Translations under genes and position numbers: made by a program
Assembly (NCBI RefSeq): GCF_030028105.1
Contig: NC_092399.1
Span: forward strand, 24,572,881-24,636,880
DNA: 64,000 nucleotides
Origin: Mobula birostris
Lineage: Eukaryota
Direction of reading: 5' to 3'
Shown: piece by piece, positions 11,394-64,000 of the stretch
Layout: each line of letters opens with the position of its first letter
Position numbering within the stretch: the first letter of the stretch is position 1
Notes under the pieces: generated by a model
The model's input: only the letters and a program-made list of their open reading frames with translations
The model's database searches: none
Told to the model about the DNA's origin: nothing

Positions 11394-12972
11394 CAGGTTT
11401 CCCCCGCCATCCGAAGGTAGAGCGTTCTTATGAAATGGTTCGTAAGCCGAAATGTCGTAAAGCGAAGAAGCAATTACCATTTATTTATATGGGAAAATTT
11501 TGTGAGCGTTCACAGACCCAAAAATAACCTACCAAATCATGCCAAATAACACATAAAACCTAAAATAACAGTAACATATAGTAAAAGCAGGAATGATATG
11601 ATAAATACACAGCCTATATAAAGTAGAAATACTTCTCTACAATGATTGCCTGCACAGATCTCTGTAGCGAAAATCTCATGCAAGCGCTGTTGGCATAAAC
11701 GCGCTCTCCAGTAACCTTTAAACTATGAAGCTGCCAAATCTACCAAATAATACATAAAATACACAGCCTATATAAAGTAGAAATAATGTATGTACAGTGT
11801 AGTATCACTTATGGGAATTGGGAAGACATTGCACACACTGATGATGGTGTGTTAGACTGAGTCGTCGCAGGTTGGAGTGGTGCAGTGGCCCCCACCCTCC
11901 AGGCCGCCGACTGATACTTTGCCGTGAAGCATGCAGGGGTAGCCGGTAGGCACACAGCACATCTATAAGAAAGAAGCCAAAATAAACATACAATTAATTA
12001 GATTCTGTCCGGCACGTAAATGTCGGCGCAGATCAGAGGCGATTGCCGATTGCATCAGCACTGATCTGGGCCGACAATTACGTGCTAGGCGGCACCTAAT
12101 TGACTAGCATGTTTATTTTGGCTTTTTTCTTAAAGATGAGCTGTGTGCCTCCCGGCTACTGCTGCATTCTCCGCGAATCGGTACAGTATCTGTCCGGGGC
12201 CCGGGGGTTGGGGTGGTGGGACATGGGGGTGTCATCTCATCGTCGATCAGGGCAGGTAGCTCATCTTCTCTTATGACTGCCTGCCTCGATGTCGAAGGTC
12301 GAGGTTCGTCGTCTGCTGTGGCTGATGTGGAAGGCTTGCTTGACTGTTGAGCCTCACGCATTTTTCTATCACACAGTTCTTTGTAAGGACTCAAAACATC
12401 CTGCAAATATCCCCTAAACCTATGTACCTTTTCAAAATTAAAGTCGTACTTTATCATTGCAGCGAAAATCTCACGCAGTTGCTTCACGTTCAGTTCCTGG
12501 ACGACTTCACTTTCGCTACTGCATTCGGTTTCGATTGTTATCCTTTCCTCTTCCAATTGCATCAGCTCTTCATCTGTCAGTTCTTGGTCATGGGATGCCA
12601 AAACCTCTTCAACATCATCTTTGTCAGCTTTCACAAGCCAAACTCACTTTGTCCTTGCTTCGTTCACCACGATTGAAACACTTAATTATGTCTAGTTTTA
12701 CGCTAAGTGTAACACCCTTACGAGCTCTTTCAGGCTTTTCCGACACCTTAGAACTCATCTTGCAAACGGCTGCTCACAGGCTCGTGTTTAAGCAATGCCA
12801 TTCCGAATCCGGGTGAGAGCGGCTGCTCGGGGTGTGCGCTGCCTTTTATCGTGCGCTGCCTTTCTTTGTAACAGTGAAAACACCTTCTGAAAGCAAAAAC
12901 AGGGTACTAATGTAGGTCTTTCGTAACAGTGAGGTTTCATAAAGCGAACATTCAAAAAGCGGGGGACACCTG
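11394..12972 (-). mobile_element. Tigger/pogo DNA transposon, internally deleted (CENP-B-type N-terminus joined to TIGD1-like C-terminus, DDE domain missing)
   Basis: TIRs caggtttcccccgc / gcgggggacacctg with TA at 12973-12974; ORF 12113-12634 DDVEEVLASHDQELTDEELMQLEE...LSPYKELC; N-terminus MSSKVSEKPERARKGVTLSVKLDIIK near 12758. Confidence 0.85.
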
Positions 12973-18544: not shown

Positions 18545-21500
18545 TATGTTTTCAGCGGGCTGCAATCAGCATGAGAGTTGCTCGCTGGTGCAGCATTGTG
18601 AGGTATAAAAAGAGTTTGGTTGTGTTTAGGACTTATTGGCGGGCATACATTATCAATGGAGATTGTTCGTAGGTGATGCAGCATGAAGTTTAAAAAGACC
18701 TTAGGTGCTTTTTGGACTTTTTAGCAGGCTGCAATTATATCACTCTATTTGGCACCCAGCAGAGGCCAATAAAAAAAGTAGTGAGGCATAAACAGAGTGA
18801 CCATCGTGGGATCGACCATCGTGTGAGTGGACAGTGTTAGAGTGGTCAGGATTTGGCTCTACAGGCTTGGGTGAGAACAGACTTGGGCAAGAACAGGCAG
18901 AGTTTCTAAAAAAGTTTCTGGGAAGTTATTTTTTTGTTTGTACATAACTACTGTGCTGAGAACAGATCCAGAGTTAGTGGTGTGTTCCTTGTATTAGATA
19001 TGGAAACCTTGGGGAGACCTCTAAGTCTCCCTGATAGCCACTTCTACATGAAGTACGCTGAGCTGCATCCCCTTAGAGACCATGTTAAGGAACTGGAGCT
19101 ACAGCTCATGACCTTTGGGTCTTAAGGAAAACAGAGGAGGTGATAGATAGGAGCCACAAGGAGGTAGTCACCCTAAGTTACAGAAGGCAGGTACCTGGGT
19201 GACTGTCAGGAGAGGGAAAGGTAGCTGGCGATGCTCCCTTAATAATAAGTATACAGCTTTGGATACTGTTGGAGGGGGCCTACCAGGGGGAAGCTACAGT
19301 GACCCGATCTCAGGCACTGAATCTGTCTTCTATTTCTGGAATGCATTAATGATAGAAGATTCCATAATTATAGGAGCAGACAGCAGATTCTGTGGACTTA
19401 AAAGATACTGCCAGATTGTATGTTGCCTCAGGTGCCAGGGTCAGGGTTGTCTCAGATTGGATCCACAGCTTTCTAAAGAGGGAGGGTGAGCAGCTGGAAG
19501 TTGTTACACATATTGGTACCAACACCACAGGGAGGGAAAAGGGAGGAGGTCCTGAAGAGAAAATGTAGGGAGCAAGGTAGAAAGCTGAAAAGGTAGCAAA
19601 TTATTGCTACGAGGGTACTAATTTCTGGTTTTCTGCCTGTGCCGCATGCCAGTGAGGGTAAGAATAGGATGATTTGGAAGATGAGTGTGTGGCTGAAGAA
19701 TTGGTGCAAGGGCAGGGTTTCAGATTTCACAATCATCTGGATCTCTTCTGAGGAAGGTATGGCTTGTACGAAAAGGACAGGTTACATCTGAACCTGAGGG
19801 GGACAAATATCATTTGGGGCATGTTTGCTATCCATGCTAGTGTCTTTGCAGTGGACTGATGGAAAATGAGGTAGTCATGTGGGACAAAGAATGGTGGATG
19901 AACTTAATAAGAATTTTGCGTCTTTCTTCACTATGGAAGATACTAGCAGAATGCTAAATGTATGAGACTGTCAGGGGACAGAAGTGAGTGTTGTTGTCTT
20001 TACTAAGGAGAAGGTGCTTGGGAAGCTGAAAGATCTGAAGGTAGAGGAGTCACGTGAACCCGATGGACTACATGCCAGTGACTGAAAAAGATAGTTGAAG
20101 AGATTGTGGAGGCATCAGTAATAATCCTATCAGTTAGCACGACTGTGTTACAGCACAGGGTGTTCTAGAGTTTGGAGTTCAATTATGGCACCATTCTGTA
20201 AGGAGTCTCTCTACACCCTCTCTGTGGAGTGTATGGGTTTCCCTCAGTTCTCCAGTTTCCTCCCACAGTTCAAAGACATACCGGGTAGGTTAATCGGTTA
20301 TTGCAAAATTGCCCCGTGACTATGTTAGGGTAAATCATATTTGTCAGGGGTTGCTATGGTGACGTACCTTGAAGGGCTGAAAGTGCCTACTCTGTGCTGT
20401 ATCGCTAAAGAAAGTGTCACTAGGTTCTGGAGTGTTTCCAGAGTTCTGGAAAATTGCAAATGTCACTCCTTTCTTCAAGGGAAGGAGGTAGAAGAAAGGA
20501 AATTATAGGCCAGTTAGCCAGATTTCAGTGGCTGAAAAAATGCTGGAGTCTATTATAAGGATGAGGTGTCAGGCTACTTGGAGGCACAAGACAAAATAGG
20601 TCAAATCTGTTGGAATTCTTTGAGGAAATAACAGGCAGGATAGACAAAGGAGAGTCAGTGGATGTTGTTTACTTGGATTTTCAGAAGGCCTTTGACAAGG
20701 TGCTGCACATGGGGATGCTGAACAAGTTAGGCGCTCATGCTATCACATGAAAGGCACTAGCATGGATAGCAGATTGGCTGACTGACGGGAGGCAAAGAGT
20801 ATGAATAAAGGGGGCCTTTCCTGGTTAGATGCCAGTGACTTGTGGTGTGGTACAGGTGTCAGTGTTGGGACCACTTTGTTTCACATTATATGTCCATGAT
20901 TTGGATTAACGAATTGATGGCTATGTGGCCAGGTTTGTGGATGATACGAAGATAAGAGAAGGGGCAGGTAGTGTTGAGGAAGCAAGGTGTCTGCAGAAGG
21001 ACTTAAATAGATTGGGAGGTAAGAAGTGGCAGATGGAATATAATGTAGGGAATTGTATGGTCATGCACTTTGGTAGAAGGAATATATGTATGGACTATTT
21101 TCTAAGTGGGGAGGAAATACAAAAATCAGAGGTGCAAAGGGACTTGGGCGTCCTTGTGCAGGAATCCCTAAAGGTTAACTTGCAGGTTGAGTCAGTGGTA
21201 TGGAAGGAAAATGCAATGTTGGGATTCATTTTGAGAGAACGAGAATACAAATGCAAGGATGTAATGCTAAGGCTTTACAAGGCGATAATCAGACCACACT
21301 TGGAGCATTGTGAGCTGTTTTGGGACCTTTATGTAAGAAAAGATGTGCTGGCATTGGAGAGGGTCCAGAGAAGTTTCATGAACATAATCCCAAGAATGAA
21401 AGGGTTAACATAGAAGGAACGTTTGATGGCTCTGGACCTATACCTACTGGAGTTTAGAAAAGCAAGTGGTGATCTAATTGAAACTTATTGAATACTGAAA

Positions 21501-22410: not shown

Positions 22411-22939
22411 ATATGGAAATATGCAATGACTGAGTAAACATTCATAAATGCAAATGAATGATCTCTTCAATTGCGTGAAAATAACCTCAGAACTGTACGT
22501 GTTATAACGTAATTGCAAGAATTGGCTAACTTCTTTGGAGGCAATTACACTTTCAATCTCCGAAACATGGAGTAAAATTCATTAAATTTACTCAAGAGCA
22601 GTGTTGGACTGGGTGACTTTTACCGATATATAAAGTAGAAAGTTCAGATAAACATAGCCATAGGATCCACAATGAGGTTAAAAAGTATCTGGTTTTGTAA
22701 AAACATTATTAAATCATTTTAGAGTCAGCCACTAGATGTATATTGTGCAATATTGTAATAGAAATGTAGTTTTTTTGTTTTATGGAGTTAGGGAGTCTTT
22801 AAAGCAAATAAATTGTGACAAACATTTGAAGTGATTGTGCTTACTTTTGAGCTCCAAATGTATGGCTTCAGTTTCTCAAAATTATGTAGAAGCTGGATAG
22901 ATGTTTTTTTTTGCATGCTCCAGTGTTGAAGTTAGTCAC

Positions 22940-23137
22940 TGTTATGTAACTTCTATTTAAATGTACTGTGGGTTAACAGTAAAGAATCATATTCTGGAGG
23001 AATTAGAGAACTTTTATTTACAGTAATAAACACACACGTCTTAACCCAGCCACGTGCTGGAACATTGTAGCAATCCCGTGCATGCTCAGTACTCTGTCCA
23101 ATCATGTACTGGCACATCATTGCATGTCATATCACCA
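22940..23137 (-). repeat. 3' LTR (198 bp)
   Basis: Direct repeat of 24879-25074; preceded on the minus strand by purine tract aggaaaggaaga. Confidence 0.95.
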
Positions 23138-23139
23138 CA

Positions 23140-23151
23140 TCTTCCTTTCCT
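23140..23151 (-). promoter_or_regulatory. Polypurine tract (PPT)
   Basis: AGGAAAGGAAGA on the minus strand next to the 3' LTR; a second copy lies at 23343-23354. Confidence 0.85.
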
Positions 23152-23199
23152 TAAAAAGAAAAAATAATTAACAATGTTAATCAAAGCAAATACATAATT

Positions 23200-23338
23200 C
23201 CACATGTTTCTATCAGTCTCTCTGTGGGTTTACCAACACGAGTAGACCTTCTAAGTGGTACACACAGATCTTGTGTTTCCTTGTTATTATTTACATGTTT
23301 TGTCTCATCTGCATCAGTTAACTGACCCTCTGAAGAAT
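23200..23338 (-). pseudogene. Residual C-terminal tail of Gypsy Pol (post-integrase)
   Basis: VPLRRSTRVGKPTERLIET fits the RRSxRxxKPPxRL-type tail common at Gypsy integrase ends. Confidence 0.65.
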
Positions 23339-23378
23339 CACATCTTCCTTTCCTCAAAAAGAAAAGCAAATAAAAACG

Positions 23379-23999
23379 TTAACCAATAAACAAATCTATA
23401 TCAGCTAACTGAAACTTTGAAGTTGGCTCTTCACTATCTGAGCCATGACTCTTTTTGTGCTTCTTCTTTTCTGCGTTAAGCTTTTCTTTATGTATCTCAA
23501 CTAAACTTTTCTCACATGCCTCCCGGTTAGAATCTGGAATTTCGGGTAAGCAGTTCACGCTATCCTGCTCAGCAATCTGCTTCCCTGCTTCTGTTTGGAC
23601 TGTATCTTTCCTAATTCCTTCCATTTCCATTTGTAATGAAATACAAATCTTCTTTTCTTCATCTAATTCATTCAGTAACAGTGTAATCTCTTTTTTATGC
23701 TGAGACTTCATCATTTCAATACAACTTCTCAATTCCTTCACTTGTGCTTCTTCCTTATACTGTGCCCACTGTGAGTGTTCTTGCTCTAGCCGGTGGTTAG
23801 ACTGAATCTCATATTCTCTCAGTGACTCTTTCATTATTTCTTGCATTGAAGCAACCTCCTCCTGCCATCGCTTTTTCATATCAGCAATTGCCTCCTGTTT
23901 GGTCATCTCAGACACTGCAGCTACAACTTTTATATTCTCCATGTCAGCATTTTCATAAAGCGCATCTGCATAAAATTTCTCACGGTTATCTTCAATCAC
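23379..23999 (-). CDS. Open 206-codon chimeric frame: Gag tail + RABEP1 + SH3KBP1 + SLU7 fragments
   Basis: Uninterrupted ORF in frame with the upstream gag; internal ATG at 23942 (MENIK); segments recognised by recalled similarity to human proteins. Confidence 0.75.
23427..23594 (-). pseudogene. SLU7: Captured fragment of pre-mRNA splicing factor SLU7 (C-terminal Lys-rich region)
   Basis: TEAGKQIA...[28 protein letters not shown] vs recalled human TGEAGKEIV...QTLMELHQEKLKEEKKKK...KHRKSSSDSDDEE. Confidence 0.7.
23607..23747 (-). pseudogene. SH3KBP1: Captured fragment of SH3KBP1/CIN85 (C-terminal coiled coil)
   Basis: [47 protein letters not shown] vs recalled human [47 protein letters not shown]. 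Confidence 0.85.
23751..23948 (-). pseudogene. RABEP1: Captured fragment of rabaptin-5 (N-terminal coiled coil)
   Basis: [47 protein letters not shown]...[14 protein letters not shown] vs recalled human AEMENIKAIATVSENTKQEAIDEVKRQWREEVASLQAVMKETVRDYE...RLEQERTQWAQYRE. Confidence 0.88.
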
Positions 24000-24785
24000 T
24001 GCATTTACTTATTTCATTTCATTTTCCTTCTTTCTACTTCTACAGCAGCGCGAAAAATGATTAATCTTACCTCAGTTGTAGCAGATTTTGCCATATGCGA
24101 AACACTGATTTAGAGGATGTTCCCGCGCACAGCGATCACATGACTTTTTTCTTCCAAATGCTGTCTTACTCCCTGTCAGTTTTGTCGATGTATTATTATA
24201 TTTCTTGATATATTCGTGCTGTTTTACAGCATTTACATTGCAGTTTTCGACAAAAAGCTCTTCAGCCTGCGACATTACAGTCTCAGAAGCTTTGCAGAGC
24301 GCGAAAGCTTTTTCAAAATTTAAATCTTGCTCTCTCAACAGCCTTTTTCTTAGTGTATTATCTTGAATGCCACAAATTAGTCTATCTTTAATAAGAGAGT
24401 CTGTGAGCAATGCAAACTCGCACGTTCTTCTATGCTTTCTTAACTCAGTCACATACTGATCAATTGTTTCAGTAGCTCTCTGCGCACATGTGAAGAACTT
24501 AAATCGCTCATACGTTAAATTACGCTTAGGTATACAAAATACTTCAAATCTATCCATTATCAACTTTAAATTGAAATTATCTCCATCTTCAAAGACAAAA
24601 TTATTATATACCTCTACTGCGTCATTCCTGATTACATGGAACAAAAGCACAGCTTTATTTTTTTCCGATTTTCCTTCATAATCGATCGCTGATAAGTACA
24701 GTTCAAACTGTTGCTTGAATATCCTCCAATTCACAGTTACATTGCCAGTCAGCTGCAATTTTGCTGGGGGTTGTAAACCTTCCAT
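24000..24785 (-). pseudogene. Gypsy/Mag-type gag with two late premature stops
   Basis: MEGLQPPAKL...NWRIFKQQFELYL...ERFKF...ETIDQYVTELR...IKDRLICGI...RLLRE; zinc knuckles CDRCAREH and CYN*GKINHFSRCC; stops at 24072-24074 and 24009-24011. Confidence 0.9.
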
Positions 24786-24863
24786 TTTACTGTTTACAGT
24801 TTGAACTTTTTTCTTTTTTTGATTATCTTTGATTTTCGATTCCCCCGTATTAATCTTCCAGAA

Positions 24864-24878
24864 CCACTTCTGACACCA
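24864..24878 (-). promoter_or_regulatory. Primer binding site complementary to the tRNA-Leu 3' end
   Basis: TGGTGTCAGAAGTGG directly after the 5' LTR; complementary to CCACTTCTGACACCA of vertebrate tRNA-Leu(CAA/CAG). Confidence 0.85.
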
Positions 24879-25074
24879 TGTTATGTTACTTCTATTTAAA
24901 CGCACTGTGGGTTAACAGTACAGAACCATGTTCTGGAAGAATTAGAGAAGTTTTATTTACAGTAATAAACATACGTCTTAACCCAGTCACATGCTGGAAC
25001 GTTCTAGCAATCCTGCGCATGCTCAGTGCTCTGTCAAATCATGTACTGGCACATCATTGCACGTGATATCACCA
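24879..25074 (-). repeat. 5' LTR (196 bp)
   Basis: Direct repeat of 22940-23137, TG..CA ends, TSD adjacent. Confidence 0.95.
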
Positions 25075-25184
25075 GTCACTTTATCTAATTTCACATTCCG
25101 TGCTGGTGAATCGTAAACTTACAATGCTGTGGCTGCTGCTTTTGGTAATCATTAATTCTGAAACTTTATGCTTTATGCTGTCAT

Positions 25185-25665: not shown

Positions 25666-26766
25666 TGTCACTGTCCGGTCCGTTGACTTCTCATTTCAGT
25701 TAATTTCTTTTTCCCCATGTTCTACCGGGCTCCTTGATTAGGGCACCTGATCCTCATCCAAACCGGCAGCATAAAAACTCCAGCTTACATCTACTCAGTG
25801 CTGGACCGTCACACTGCAGCCTGTGTGGCAATGCATGTTCCGGGGCCACCGAGAATGGACTCCTCAGCCAGTGAGGCAATGCAGGACACAGACACGGAGG
25901 TAACAATAACAGAAGTGTATCTTATTAATAGTTGCCAGGAAGGCTGGAGAGCGAGGATTAGATGCTTACATGGACGTAAACGTTGGACAACAAACCAGAG
26001 GAACCTGGACTTGGACTTGGCCACACAGCCTGGACTCAGACACGGAACCTGGACTTGAACTCGGATGCGGAACCTGGACTTGGGCCGCTGAGAATGGTAG
26101 ATTTTAAGTGGCTTCCCTTCTCCAGGAATTCTGTCTCTTCATGTTTAGCTAAGTGATTGCTGGCCATTTGCCGCTTCATGTGCTACCCCATGTCAAGATA
26201 TGAATTGTCTGCCGTTGTTGGGTTTTGTCATCTAGTGTCCAGCTGAGGATTGATGTCCATTTGCCCCTCCTCCGAGCCAAGACAAAAATTGTCTGTCGTT
26301 GTTGGGTTTTGTCGTCCCATGTCAAAGTCCGAGTCCAGGCTCCGAGTCCAAGTCAAGTCCGAGTCCAGGCTCCGAGTCCATGTCAAGTCCAAGTCCAGGC
26401 TCCGAGTCCAAGTCAAGTCCAAGTCCAGGCTCCGAGTCCATGTCAAGTTCGAGTCCAGGCTTCATGTCCGAGTCCAAATCCAAGTCCAGGTTCCACGTCC
26501 GAGTCCAAGCCCAAGTCCAGGTTCCGCGTTCGAGTTCAAGTCCAGGTTCCGTGTCTGAGTCCAGGCTCCGTGGCCGAGTCCAGGCTCTGTGGCCAAGTCC
26601 AAGTCCAGGTTCCTCTGGGTTGTTGTCCAATGTTTACGTCCATGTAAGCATCTAATCCTCGCTCTCCGGCCTTCCTGGCAACTATTAATAAAATATACTT
26701 CTGTTAATGTTACCTCCGTGTCTGTGTCCTGCACTTGGGCCCGCTCCCAAATGCCGCATTGTAACA
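25666..26766 (+). mobile_element. Solo Gypsy-like LTR with internal 30-bp tandem array and inverted self-duplication
   Basis: TG..CA ends; TSD ggagt at 25661-25665 and 26767-26771; aataaa near 26686; ctgcacttggg 3' motif. Confidence 0.8.
26320..26612 (+). repeat. Tandem repeat with a ~30-bp unit built from gagtcc/aagtcc hexamers
   Basis: gtccaggctccgagtccaagtcaagtcc units repeated. Confidence 0.9.
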
Positions 26767-29215: not shown

Positions 29216-30545
29216 TAAACACAAAATAATCTGCAGATGCTGTTGTCAAAGGAACACTCACAATGCGCTGGAGGAACTCAGCAGGTCAGTCAGCATCAGC
29301 TGAAAAGATTAGTCGACGTTTCGGACCGAAACCCTTTGTCAGGACTGAAGGAAGAACTTTGGGGAGGGTTTGAAGAATGCTGGTAGTTGAAAAAAACAGT
29401 AATTTGAAAGACAAAGGGGTGGGGGAGGGGAAACAGGGAGGTGATTGGCAGGAGAACAATCGGAAGTAGTAGAAGGAGGCGGAACTATGAGGGAGCTGAT
29501 GTGAAATAGTGATAGAGGAAGGGAGGAGGAGGGAATTACCGGAAGTTGGAAAATTCTATGTTCATACCAAGGGGCTGGAGACTACCTAGACGGTATATGA
29601 GGTGTTGCTCCTCCAACCTGAGTTTAGCCTCATCATGGCAGTAGAAGAGGCCATGTATGGACATATCTGAATGGGAATGGGAAGCAGAGTTGAAGTGGGT
29701 GGCTGCCGGGAGATCCTCTCTGTTGTGGCGGATGGAGTGGAGGTGCTCGATGAAGCAGTCCCCCAACCTGTGTCGGGTTTCACCGATGTAGAGGAGGCCA
29801 CACCAGGAGCACCGGATGCAATAGATGACCCCAACAGATTCGCAAGTGAAATGTTGCCTCACCTGGAAGGACTGTTTGGGGCGCTGAATGGTGGCAAGAG
29901 AGGAGGTGTAGGGTCAGGTGTAGCACTTACGCTTACAGGGATAAGTGGGGATGGACGTGCGGATAAGTGAGTCGCGGAGGGATCGATCCCTGCAGAAAGC
30001 GGAGAGGGGTGGAGAGGGAAAGATGTGCTTAGTGGTGGGGTCCTGTTGAAGGTGGCGGAAGTTGTGGAGGATAATGTGCTGGATCTGGAGGCTGGTGGGG
30101 TGGTAGGTGAGGACAAGGGGAACTCTGTCCCTGTTGTGGTGGCGGGAAGATGGGGTGAGGGCTGAAGTGCAGGAAATGGAGGAGATGCGGGTGAGGGCAT
30201 CATTGATCACCGTAGAAGGGAAACCACGATCCTTAAAGAAAGAGGACATTTTAGATGTCCTGGAATGGAAAGCCTCATCCTGGGAGCAGATGTGGCGGAG
30301 ATGGAGGAACTGGGAATAGGGAATGGCATTTTTGCATGTGGCGGGGTGGGAAGAGGTATATTCGAGGTAGATATGAGAGTCAGTGGGCTTGTAGAAGATG
30401 TCAGTGGACAGTCTGTCTCCAGAGATGGAGACCGAGACATGGAGAAAGGGGAGAGAAGTGTCAGAGATAGACCAAGTGAATTTGAGGGCTGGGTGGAAGT
30501 TTGAAGTAAAGTCGATGAAATTGTCGAGCTCAGCATGGGTGCAGG
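29216..30545 (-). mobile_element. Penelope-like element, 5'-truncated (RT thumb, GIY-YIG endonuclease, pLTR), nested in an older Penelope (about 28890-31000)
   Basis: FTCESVGVIYCIRCSWCGLLYIGET...EQHLIYRLGSLQPLGMN; RVPLVLTYHP; TSD aagca(a/g)tggaagttg at 29201-29215 and 30546-30560. Confidence 0.9.
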
Positions 30546-31309
30546 AAGCAGTGGAAGTTGGTTGGTGGGAGTATAGTTGAAGCAGCAGTGGGAATTTGTG
30601 GGCTTCTAATGAATATTTGTTTTAGCCCTATTATCTATGATGGAGATAGGGATGGAGATATCAAGGAAAGAAAGGAATAAGCTTAATATTGACCATGTAA
30701 GACTAATATCAGAGTGGAGATTGGCAGCAAAAGTAATGAAACTTTTGAGCACTGTAGGAGTGTCGAAGGCAGCTGTAATAGAGCCATCAATGAAACTGAA
30801 AAGGAGGTGAGGGAGCTCCTTCAATAGAACTGAAACAAAGATTGCTTCACATATCCCATGAAGAGAGAAGCAAAACCCCATAGCTCCACCTTGAATCTGG
30901 AGAAACTGAGTGGTGTTGCCAGAGAGGGTGCCCAAATTAGAACCAGTTCAACTGGGTGGATCAGAGTAGTGATGGAGGGAGTGTGGTCTCTGTAAGGAAT
31001 AAAGGAAGGACCTTCAGCCCATCTTTAGGGGTAGTGTATCAATGGTGAAGGTGTACTGAAAGGGAATTCAAATAATGACAGAGGGCTTCAATGATGGCAC
31101 AGATGTATATGGCAAAAGACTGGATAAGTGGAGAAAGAAAAGATTAAGAGCTGGTTGAAAGAATAGATCCACCAGGAGATTTCAGCTTACGAATGGAGAG
31201 AAGACATTGAACTACATTCTGCATGGCTCTAGGACTGAGATGAGATAAAGAAGGCATGTTATTCTGGGAGAGTGACTGAGATACCGGTTGTCTGGGTCAA
31301 CATATATAA

Positions 31310-33414: not shown

Positions 33415-34411
33415 TATTCTCCGTAACTTCCGCCACCTCCAACGGGATCCCACCACTAAGCACATCTTTCCCTCCCCCCTCTCTCTGCTTTCCGCAGGGA
33501 TAGCTCCCTACACGACTCCCTTGTCCATTCGTCCCCCCCATCCTTCCCCACTGATCTCCCTCCTGGCACTTATCTGTGTAAGCGGAACAAGTGCTACACA
33601 TGCCCTTACACTTCCTCCCTTACCACCATTCAGGGCCCCAAACAGTCCTTCCAGGTGAGGCAACACTTCACCTGTGAGTCAGCTAGGGTGCTATACTGCG
33701 TCCGGTGCTCCCGATGTGGCCTTTTATATATTGGCGAGATCCGACGCAGACTGGGAGACCGCTTTGCTGAACACCTACGCTCCGTCCGCCAGAGAAAGCA
33801 GGATCTCCCAATGGCCACACATTTTAATTCCACATCCCATTCCCGTTCTGACATGTCTATCCATGGCCTCCTCTACTGTAAAGATGAAGCCACACTCAGG
33901 TTGCAGGAACAACACCTTATATTCTGTCTGGGTAGTCTCCAACCTGATGGCATGAACATCGACTTCTCTAACTTCCGCTAATGCCCCACCTTCCCCTCGT
34001 ACCCCATGTGTTACTTATTTTTATACACACATTCTTTCTCTCACTCTCCTTTTTCTCCCTCTGTCCCTCTGAATATACCCCTTGCCCACCCTCTGGGTCC
34101 CCCTCCCACCTCCTTGTCTTTCTTCCCGGACCTCCTGTCCCATGATCCTCTCGTATCCCTTTTGCCTACCACCTGTCCAGCTCTTGGCTCTATCCCTCCC
34201 CCTCCTGTCTTCTCCTATCATTTCGGATCTCCCCCTCCCCCTCCAACTTTCAAATCCCTTACTCACTCTTCCTTCAGTTAGTCCTGACGAAGGGTCTCGG
34301 CCTGAAACGTCGACTGCACCTCTTCCTAGAGATGCTGCCCGGCCTGCTGCGTTCACCAGCAACTTTGATGTGTGTTGCTTGAATTTCCAGCATCTGCAGA
34401 ATTCCTGTTGT
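33415..34411 (+). mobile_element. Penelope-like element 3' portion (GIY-YIG and pLTR)
   Basis: ORF 33655-33981 has a GIY-YIG domain with CxxC/H residues; TSD tcacaggt at 33407-33414 and 34412-34419. Confidence 0.9.
34280..34315 (+). ncRNA. Minimal type I hammerhead ribozyme motif in Penelope pLTR
   Basis: agtc-CTGACGA-AGG gtctcgg CCT-GAAAC-GTC-gact: conserved core, stem II, stem I agtc/gact, GUC cleavage triplet. Confidence 0.8.
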
Positions 34412-35089
34412 TCACAGGTGAAGTGTTGCCTCACCTGGAAGGACAGTTTGGGGCCCTGAAGGGTAGTGAAGGGGGAGATGTAGGAGCAGGTGTAGCATTT
34501 GTTCCGTTTGCAAGTATGAGCGCTAGGAGGGAGATCAGTAGGGAGGGATGAATGGACAAGAGAGTTGCATAAGGAGCGATCCCTGTGGAAAGCAGAAAGT
34601 GGAGGCGGGGTGGGGGAGGAGGGAAAGATGTGCTAATGGTGGGATCCTGCTGAAGTTGGCGGAAGTTACAGAGAACTAGGTGCTGGATGCAGAGGCTAGT
34701 GAAGTGGAAGGTTAGGACAAGAGCAACCCTATCCCTGGTGGGGTGGTGGGAGGATGGGATGAGGCCAGATGTGTGCAAAATGGAAGCGATGTGGGTGACA
34801 GCAGTGTTGATGGTGGTAGAATTTTGTACATTCTCCTTGTGAATGTACAAAATTCCACCTGGTGCTCTGGTTTCCTCCCACATTCCAAAAAAGTATGATT
34901 AAAGCTCAGCATGTTATGCTGCTGGTGGAAGCACGGTGACGCTTGTGGGCTCCCCCAGCACAATCCTCGGCCTGTGTCGGTCATTGACGCAAAATGATGC
35001 ATTTCACTGTGTGATTTGATGCCTTGATGTACGTATGACAAACAAAGCAAATCTTTTAATATAGATAATGGGAACTTATTTTGGAGACC

Positions 35090-53790: not shown

Positions 53791-53884
53791 AGTCTAGTTA
53801 CAGAGTTGCCCTGAGAATTGCCTCACTTTATTTTGATAACAGTGGTTGTTCTCTCATCGTTGTTAATAGGGAGATTATAGTACA

Positions 53885-54905
53885 CTGGTGCTTCATCACA
53901 TTTTGGAGGAATTTCGCAATATTGGGCATGGATCGAATTAAAAGTGGTAATGAATCAGCATATGGGAGAGAGACTGAAAATTTGGCTGAGTGCTGCCATA
54001 GCAACAACCTCTTACTCAAAGTCTGCAAGATGAAGGAGCTGATCATTGACTTCAGAAGAAGGAAACCAGAGGTCCATGGGCCAGTCCTCATCAGAGGATC
54101 AGAGATGGAGATGGTCAACAGCTTTAAATTCCTCTATATTATTATTCTGGAGGACCTGTTCCTGGGCCCAGCATGTAAGTGCAATTATAAAGAAAGCATG
54201 GCAGCACCTCCGCTTCCTTTGGAGTTTGCAAAGATTTGGCTTGACATCTAAAGCTTTGACAACCTTCTACGGAAACGTGGAGATTATATTGACTGGCTGC
54301 ATCATAACCTGGTATGGAAGCATCAATGCCCTTGAATGGAAAATCCTGCAAAATGTAGTGGATATGACCCAGTCCATCACAGGTAAAGCTCTCCCCACCA
54401 TAGAGTACATCTATACGAAATGCTATTGCAGGAAAACTCCATCATCAGAGGCCCTCACCACCCAGGACCTGCTCTCTTCTTGCTGCCACCATCAGGAAGA
54501 AGGTACAGGAGCCCCAGGAGTCACACCACCAGGCTCAGGAACAGTTATTACCCCTCAACCATCAGGCTCTTGAACCAATAGGGTTAACTTCACTCAACTT
54601 CTCTTGCCCCATCATTGAAATGTTCCAACAACCTATGGGCTCACTTTCAAGGACTCTTCATCTCATGTTCTTGATATTTATTGCTTATTTATTTATTATT
54701 ATTATTTCTTTATTTTTGTACTATCTTGATCTGTTGTCTTTTGCACACTGTTTGAATGCCCAGGTTGATGTGGTCTTTCATTGACTCTGTTATGGTTATT
54801 ATTTTATGAACTTTTTTAACTACACCCACAAGAAAATGAGTCTCAGAATTGTATATGGTTACATATATGTACTTTGATAATAAAATTTACTTTGAAATTT
54901 CAACT
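53885..54905 (+). mobile_element. Rex1-type LINE 3' portion
   Basis: NESAYGRETENLAECC..NNLLL..KMKELIIDFRR; KKAWQHLRFL. Confidence 0.85.
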
Positions 54906-63090: not shown

Positions 63091-63690
63091 TCAAATAAGT
63101 GTTTCTTTGAGCATTTCAAAACTGAACAGTGTTCCTTCTTTCATTATATTGCAAATAGCTGTTATTCCTTTAGCTGCCCATTCCTTAAATCTAGCATCTA
63201 GTTTGTTCGGCGTAAAATCTGAGTCATGTGCACACCATTTAAAAATTGCAATGTCTTTCCCTAGTTTATATTCTTTTATAATAGTTTTCCATATTTCAAG
63301 AGTCCATTTCACCCATGGGTTATCAATAGTATTTATGTAATTTTGTAGGTTGTTATCAGCCAAAATTGCCTGTATGGGGATGGAAAGTATCCTCTCCTCA
63401 ATGTTTTTCCATTGAGCGTCATATGATGGATTGCACCAGCACATCACAGCTCTCAACTGTGCTACAAGACAGTAATCTCTAAGAGAAGGTAGGCCCCATC
63501 CCCCCTTTTCCTTGGCTAATTGCAAAGCTTTGAGATGAATTCTAGGCCTTTTACCTTGCCATATATATCTTGATAGCATCTTGTTCCATTCATTGAATTG
63601 ATTTTGGTTAATCTCTATTGCTAGGTTCTGAAAGAGATATAGTAGTCTGGGCAGTATATTCATTTTAATAGATTCAATCCTTGAATGAGA
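63091..63690 (-). mobile_element. L1-clade LINE ORF2 fragment (post-RT region)
   Basis: SRIESIKMNILPRLLYLFQNL...RYIWQGKRPRI...KEKGGWGLPSLRDY. Confidence 0.85.
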
Positions 63691-64000
63691 CCAAGAAAAG
63701 GAATTAGGTTCCATCTTGTTATAAATTGTTTGATGATGAACTTCAGTAAAAAATAAATTACAAAAAAAAAGGTCAAAGTCAGTCAATGTGTAAGGGTACA
63801 CACCTTTGCTTTTAAGGTCTGCCCTACACTTCTTTTATCTGAAAGGACAGAGTTTCTATGAGTTCTTTATATATACACTGTACAATATGATAATTCCTTG
63901 ATTTAAAGAGCCAATTGAAATAATACTCCAGATTCAGAGTTAACTAACTCTTGAATTAATTATTTTTAAAAAGTTGTGTACTTTTTAACTTGCTATATCA

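Follow-up and report, generated by a model that had tools for sequence, protein, structure and literature searches.

The genome of Mobula birostris harbours a multi-copy family of LTR retrotransposons in which pieces of up to three host mRNAs, from RABEP1, SH3KBP1 (CIN85) and SLU7, are fused to gag, forming with it, in triple copies, a single frame of ~469 codons. The copies and their junctions make it likely that this cargo was assembled stepwise by template switching in the gag frame, and that its open frame was retained by selective amplification. One copy lies in the window, the 64,000-nucleotide stretch that was analysed (contig NC_092399.1, positions 24,572,881 to 24,636,880), to which all positions below refer. 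This copy is dead and represents a non-autonomous Ty3/Gypsy element, which we take to resemble the Mag clade.

The complete element spans 22940-25074 (2,135 bp) on the minus strand, on which all its parts are read, and displays the structural features of Ty3/Gypsy elements: paired TG...CA LTRs, a short target-site duplication (TSD), a primer-binding site (PBS) and a polypurine tract (PPT). The 5' LTR (24879-25074, 196 bp, TG...CA) and the 3' LTR (22940-23137, 198 bp) are 10% apart, with 19 substitutions and one 2-bp indel between them, and the TSD gtcac flanks them at 25075-25079 and 22935-22939. Both the PBS, immediately downstream of the 5' LTR (24864-24878), and the PPT (23140-23152) are readable in the sequence. 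A previous sequence-only reading had described such an element, with this TSD, PBS, PPT and gag, and all of these are real. The PBS presumably fits tRNA-Leu; a search for the donor tRNA gave 14 genomic matches to the short motif, with no tRNA found by ARAGORN in three of three loci and a weak tRNA match by Rfam (E 0.43). The gag gene starts with an ATG at 24785 (24072-24785) and is only weakly matched by Pfam (Retrotrans_gag, E 0.057), but it is homologous to that of a pol-bearing relative, L126. It is followed, in the same frame, by the end of gag and the gag-protease linker (23953-24071), after which protease is deleted. Stops at codons 238 and 259, the first of which ends gag, separate it in the window from the cargo, which lies in the gag frame; both are private, each being found in one copy only (1/27 and 1/31 triple copies). 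In triple copies the PPT region is also duplicated internally, ~200 nt ahead of the real PPT (23339-23386 in the window). Elsewhere in the window, tandem repeats of 30 bp with inverted arms form an array at 26000-26500, 1 kb from the element, and the segments 12113-12643, 20910-21413, 29914-30621, 33460-34898, 53793-54573 and 63091-63834 are presumably fragments of Tigger-type, CR1, Penelope-like, other LINE and L1-type elements. Translation of the long frames in the window revealed no obvious host gene.

The cargo occupies an open frame of 209 codons, stop to stop, rather than the 206 initially given. Its residues 20-86 (23747-23952) correspond to the N-terminal coiled coil of RABEP1 (Pfam Rabaptin, E 3.6e-25), residues 87-134 (23606-23749) to the C-terminal coiled coil of SH3KBP1, with 83-85% identity to ray proteins and a match to the coiled coil of PDB 5abs (E 3.3e-11), and residues 140-198 (23428-23591) to the Lys-rich region of SLU7, 68% identical pairwise to a skate protein. 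A homologue search with the cargo returned 44 matches, rays foremost, all of them RABEP1-family, SH3KBP1-type or SLU7 proteins. Pfam, PDB, homologue search and pairwise matches thus agree on the three donors named by the sequence-only reading, which are confirmed as partial, intronless pieces in one ORF. That reading also had them joined almost without spacer, which is not the case for SH3KBP1 and SLU7; these are separated by ~5 codons of integrase tail (23592-23605, with an in-frame 33-nt deletion), and more tail, with the stop of the fused frame, follows SLU7 (23379-23431). Its view that the cargo replaced pol is correct in that protease is deleted and host pieces stand in pol's place, but these integrase-tail remnants persist. 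In DNA, the RABEP1, SH3KBP1 and SLU7 pieces are 91.3%, 95.8% and 90.9% identical to the spliced M. birostris parent genes (on G000:C29, G000:C7 and G000:C8, respectively), and they are purine-rich (0.61-0.70 vs 0.56). The fixed differences between cargo and parents are too few for dN/dS.

Alignment to the parent loci bears out the proposed mRNA origin. The RABEP1 piece unites two parent exons that are 9 kb apart in the genome (junction 23828/23827), while the SH3KBP1 piece (23695/23694 and 23631/23630) and the SLU7 piece (23571/23570 and 23496/23495) unite three each. Each piece in the window therefore crosses one or two of five spliced exon junctions, and all of them derive from mRNA. When the parent exons are fused at their splice sites, translation is unbroken for all three genes; compared with Mobula proteins, the exons show 93-100% (RABEP1) and 91-100% (SH3KBP1) identity in four of five exon matches. 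The captured middle exon of SLU7 ends at a GC splice donor (G000:C8:121974739, L032). Among the homologues, a Narcine RABEP1 isoform (P0005) is listed with a reverse-transcriptase domain (PF00078).

The element is far from alone. When 40 of 970 candidates for the cargo region were scored, 39 other loci matched with 86-90% identity, in a few cases as two separate pieces, and covered 712-849 of the 851 bases of the query; the element is thus not an assembly chimera. A search with the SLU7 C terminus, in which all 125 candidates were scored, gave 93 matches and, after removal of four on the parent gene and three second matches, ~86 SLU7-bearing loci, all with the same SLU7 segment. To these we added a cargo-blind probe, a 33-nt motif at the PPT/LTR border with 138 exact matches, 86 of which were examined. 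Host cargo is present in 54 of these 86 copies (35 SH3KBP1-only, 4 RABEP1-only, 11 RABEP1 plus SH3KBP1 and, with SLU7, 2 triple and 2 truncated), the pol core in 29 (28 by script and L113 by inspection), and three are uninformative; judged from map gaps, none carries a fourth donor gene. A manual comparison placed 6 of the 64 SLU7 loci on contigs C1-C19 at a listed exact motif match, and scaling from this puts family ends at roughly 1,500 and cargo copies at roughly 900, figures uncertain by a factor of 2-3. Contigs C2, C10, C14, C15 and C17 are absent from the genome match lists, so copy counts may be low. The suggested search for copies and intermediates thus uncovered a multi-copy family with RABEP1-only, SH3KBP1-only, double and triple-with-protease forms; these, like the fusion of cargo to gag and the flanking pol remnants, had been missed by the sequence-only reading.

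The copies are dispersed. A 5-bp TSD of their own, with at most one mismatch, flanks 16 of 19 complete triple copies, which therefore represent independent insertions of a cargo element re-mobilised as a non-autonomous element. Median K2P distances between paired LTRs are 0.089 for triples (n=19), 0.062 for doubles (n=7) and 0.094 for SH3KBP1-only copies (n=17). The pol-bearing relative L126 (4,380 bp) encodes RT followed by RNase H (Pfam); with the protease seen weakly by Pfam in relatives, and integrase motifs recognized downstream by eye, this gives the pol order of an autonomous partner, and the layout of the pol-bearing relative contains no env. Among the sequencing runs listed, none is recorded as RNA. 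Contigs from three runs, presumed to be RNA, cover gag in part; their high depth over RABEP1 and SH3KBP1 continues into parent-gene sequence, and none of the contig pieces displayed, a minority, spans a cargo-cargo junction.

How was the cargo assembled? On a backbone map based on L126, RABEP1-only copies have the layout gag, protease, RT start, RABEP1, integrase tail, and the SH3KBP1-only layout is analogous. Doubles and triples have in common one RABEP1-to-SH3KBP1 crossover, found in 48 copies. Three junctions are common to single- and multi-cargo forms: the start base of RABEP1 and the tail junction in doubles are those of RABEP1-only copies, and the SH3KBP1-to-tail junction in triples is that of SH3KBP1-only copies. 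Since single-cargo families amplified alone and have these junctions in common with doubles and triples, recombination between element RNAs is indicated, and the serial capture of three mRNAs followed by integration as a unit, as first envisaged, is not supported in that form. The LTR and gag are of one type in single-cargo forms and of another in doubles and triples, and the backbones are mosaics of family lineages, as expected from repeated recombination between co-packaged RNAs. RABEP1 and SH3KBP1 thus probably entered different lineages and were brought together when elements recombined, with SLU7 added afterwards. The 64 SLU7-bearing copies, obtained by merging 81 stretches on a 50-nt key that may lose a few true copies, comprise 53 with the window layout, 6 with a longer RABEP1 piece and 5 broken at the 5' side. 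The SLU7 boundaries 85 and 269 recur in 56 and 55 of the 64, respectively, and therefore point to one SLU7 capture, while three of the six longer-RABEP1 copies visibly have the protease region and the doubles' junction, so protease was probably lost last. A direct precursor, with RABEP1, SH3KBP1 and tail joined by this same crossover but no SLU7, was not seen among the copies examined; L043 has this layout with a different crossover. No shared derived substitution links the SH3KBP1 pieces, and the common junctions could alternatively be reused microhomology hot spots.

Template switching, proposed at the outset, is supported at the junctions themselves. Cargo replaces internal element sequence with microsimilarity at the switch points, and the junctions of the window copy show microhomologies of 3, 4, 7, 2, 4 and 4 nt. 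A recurrent SH3KBP1-to-tail junction (L092, L094, L101, L111 and others; 9-10 copies) contains, in frame, a ~12-nt filler, which reads as an inverted copy of the adjoining backbone, that is, a fold-back switch.

The junctions that amplified obey a frame rule. Of the junction types mapped in 102 cargo copies (103 when the SLU7 parent locus L114 is counted), the 20 that recur, each in at least two copies, all keep the gag frame in their commonest form. These types were hand-picked once one duplicate row and the reciprocal chance-seed rows, some of which were out of frame, had been removed, and their mutual independence is incomplete. By a hand tally, the frame is kept at only 9 of the 16 junctions that occur once (Fisher p 0.0014). 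Exact matches of 3-8 nt that arise by chance between these sequences fall in frame 37-56% of the time, against which 20/20 has a binomial p of at most 9e-6. Substitutions were analysed by simple site counting, with CpG-prone sites excluded and L114 left out. For gag, omega is 0.48 for variants in at least three copies (116 N, 83 S) and 1.24 for singletons (573 N, 160 S; p 5.5e-8), that is, gag was under purifying selection in the family. Purifying selection on the amino acids of the cargo is not clearly seen, with omega of 0.70 for shared variants (36 N, 18 S) and 1.20 for singletons (337 N, 98 S; p 0.09, or 0.04 when variants in pairs are pooled in), although the value of 0.70 may reflect weak selection on the cargo protein. 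Stops account for none of 253 shared changes (at least three copies) but for 52 of 1,220 singletons (p 9e-5); for the cargo only, these numbers (0/54 and 19/454) are too small to decide.

We therefore propose the following scenario. RABEP1 mRNA would have entered one element lineage and SH3KBP1 mRNA another, through template switches guided by microhomology in the course of reverse transcription, and each lineage would have spread. A crossover between the two element RNAs would then have united RABEP1 and SH3KBP1, after which one branch would have crossed back into RABEP1, giving the double form, and another would have taken SLU7 into its integrase tail, giving a triple with protease that became the window form by protease deletion. 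Source elements would have been transcribed and translated, producing their own Gag, while RT and integrase, because pol is missing, would have been supplied by pol-bearing relatives. Selection would act on Gag and on the open frame, with the cargo as a tolerated filler; versions broken downstream of gag would have failed to amplify, and that the cargo is in frame is likely explained by the multiplication of unbroken versions only. The likeliest reason for such a requirement is a putative effect on RNA stability or translation-coupled packaging.

The cargo protein might instead have been useful, its coiled coils and Lys-rich stretch helping Gag in particle assembly, co-packaging or nuclear entry, and Gag-cargo forms might hence have out-replicated their helpers. 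A selfish element would then have made a new Gag-RABEP1-CIN85-SLU7 protein from host parts, to the benefit of its own assembly or packaging, and exon shuffling would have been selected at the level of the transposon and not of the host. Every piece is indeed sense and in frame, two are coiled coils, the SLU7 piece stands where a basic integrase-tail stretch was, and SH3KBP1-only derivatives repeatedly drop upstream parts yet keep the first half of the coiled coil or more. Moreover, by eye, the RABEP1-SH3KBP1 crossover is in heptad register, the cargo omega is below 1, and cargo forms outnumber pol-core forms 54 to 29. We nevertheless find a useful cargo doubtful, and the resulting replicative advantage equally so: constraint is not significant at the main cut, the coil is cut in half in some forms, the return crossover is out of register by eye, purine richness could account for the capture of these pieces, and short non-autonomous elements commonly outnumber their helpers anyway (PMC5131818). 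About as improbable is that each piece was taken directly from mRNA into the same element, serially and without element-element recombination. The pieces are near the parent genes and carry no diagnostic shared change, and multi-gene capture from mRNA has been reported (PMC5131818), but the same three microhomology junctions would have been used twice, in the presence of single-cargo families as abundant templates, and the mosaic backbones argue for recombination.

That the frame rule is a mere by-product of purine-rich codon runs biasing microhomologies, with no selection, we consider very unlikely. The in-frame share of chance matches does climb with their length, from 0.37 to 0.56, but 20/20 is improbable even at 0.56 and neither the one-off junctions, barely half of which are in frame, nor the lack of any stop common to at least three copies would be expected. 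Least credible of all is a domesticated chimeric host gene or an assembly artefact, even though NCBI models stingray copies as genes, one of them named RABEP1-like. The window copy has two private stops and diverged LTRs, singleton changes are neutral, only 8 of 34 triple copies retain an open frame across the cargo, and the same junctions occur at dozens of loci and in other species. Indeed, predicted proteins of Hemitrygon and Hypanus include double and SH3KBP1-only forms with junctions identical to those of Mobula (the triple form is absent among the four stingray protein matches). With the same chimeras found in two stingray genera, the age of the double and SH3KBP1-only forms must be considerable, and M. 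birostris is not alone in having them. The gene models in question are P0047, P0048 and P0050, one of which is annotated as rab GTPase-binding effector protein 1-like, and a practical consequence is that annotations of ray genomes list family copies as RABEP1-like genes.

The preferred scenario, stepwise assembly with amplification of open frames, makes the M. birostris genome a rare complete record of exon shuffling by a vertebrate transposon, with single, double and triple chimeras and their junctions. Chimeras with an open frame can be sifted out by selection that acts on a replicating element, and hundreds of in-frame fusions, each with a promoter, can be seeded in this way, a point of relevance to the origins of chimeric genes. 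Why a non-autonomous element must hold its frame open past gag also becomes testable.

Several known systems resemble this family in part. Plant TR-GAG elements are gag-only, non-autonomous LTR elements that have lost pol and whose gag is constrained; the ray element likewise keeps a constrained gag without pol but, unlike them, has host coding pieces in pol's place, fused to gag. Oncogene-transducing retroviruses acquire host mRNA by template switching, as in-frame gag-onc fusions, and depend on helpers. Host mRNA is similarly fused in frame to gag in the ray element, whose helper dependence is part of our proposal, but the ray family spread in the germ line, the layout of its pol-bearing relative has no env, and there is no sign of its cargo acting on the host. 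LTR-mediated capture, including multi-gene cases and re-mobilisation, is described in fly, mosquito, zebrafish, chicken and mammals by Tan et al. 2016 (PMC5131818). As in the ray family, those retrocopies are partial, intronless mRNAs in place of internal ORFs between two LTRs, with microsimilarity at switch points, later retroposition as non-autonomous elements and at least two donors (a mouse case has four). In contrast, they are, as presented there, young loci with one or few insertions, as opposed to ~86 triple loci and the much larger number of cargo copies estimated here, and the ray family differs from them by its series of intermediates, by recombination between cargo-bearing elements, and by a rule that concerns the gag frame at amplified junctions, theirs concerning the frame of the parental protein. 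Maize Bs1, with three donors, 1-5 copies and identical switch points, is transcribed and translated (PMC5131818, PMC13317346). Like the ray element, it carries three host genes as a chimeric ORF in one LTR element and underwent secondary retroposition; unlike it, the ray family is found in a vertebrate, has many more copies and many junction variants, and is known from genome sequence. A three-donor LTR chimera as such has precedents in Bs1 and the four-gene mouse case; for sharks or rays, where the sequence-only reading was aware of no such case, nothing relevant was found in the open-access literature searched. The mechanism of capture is thus already known; the novelty lies in its scale, in the survival of intermediates and in the frame rule, all of them in a vertebrate.
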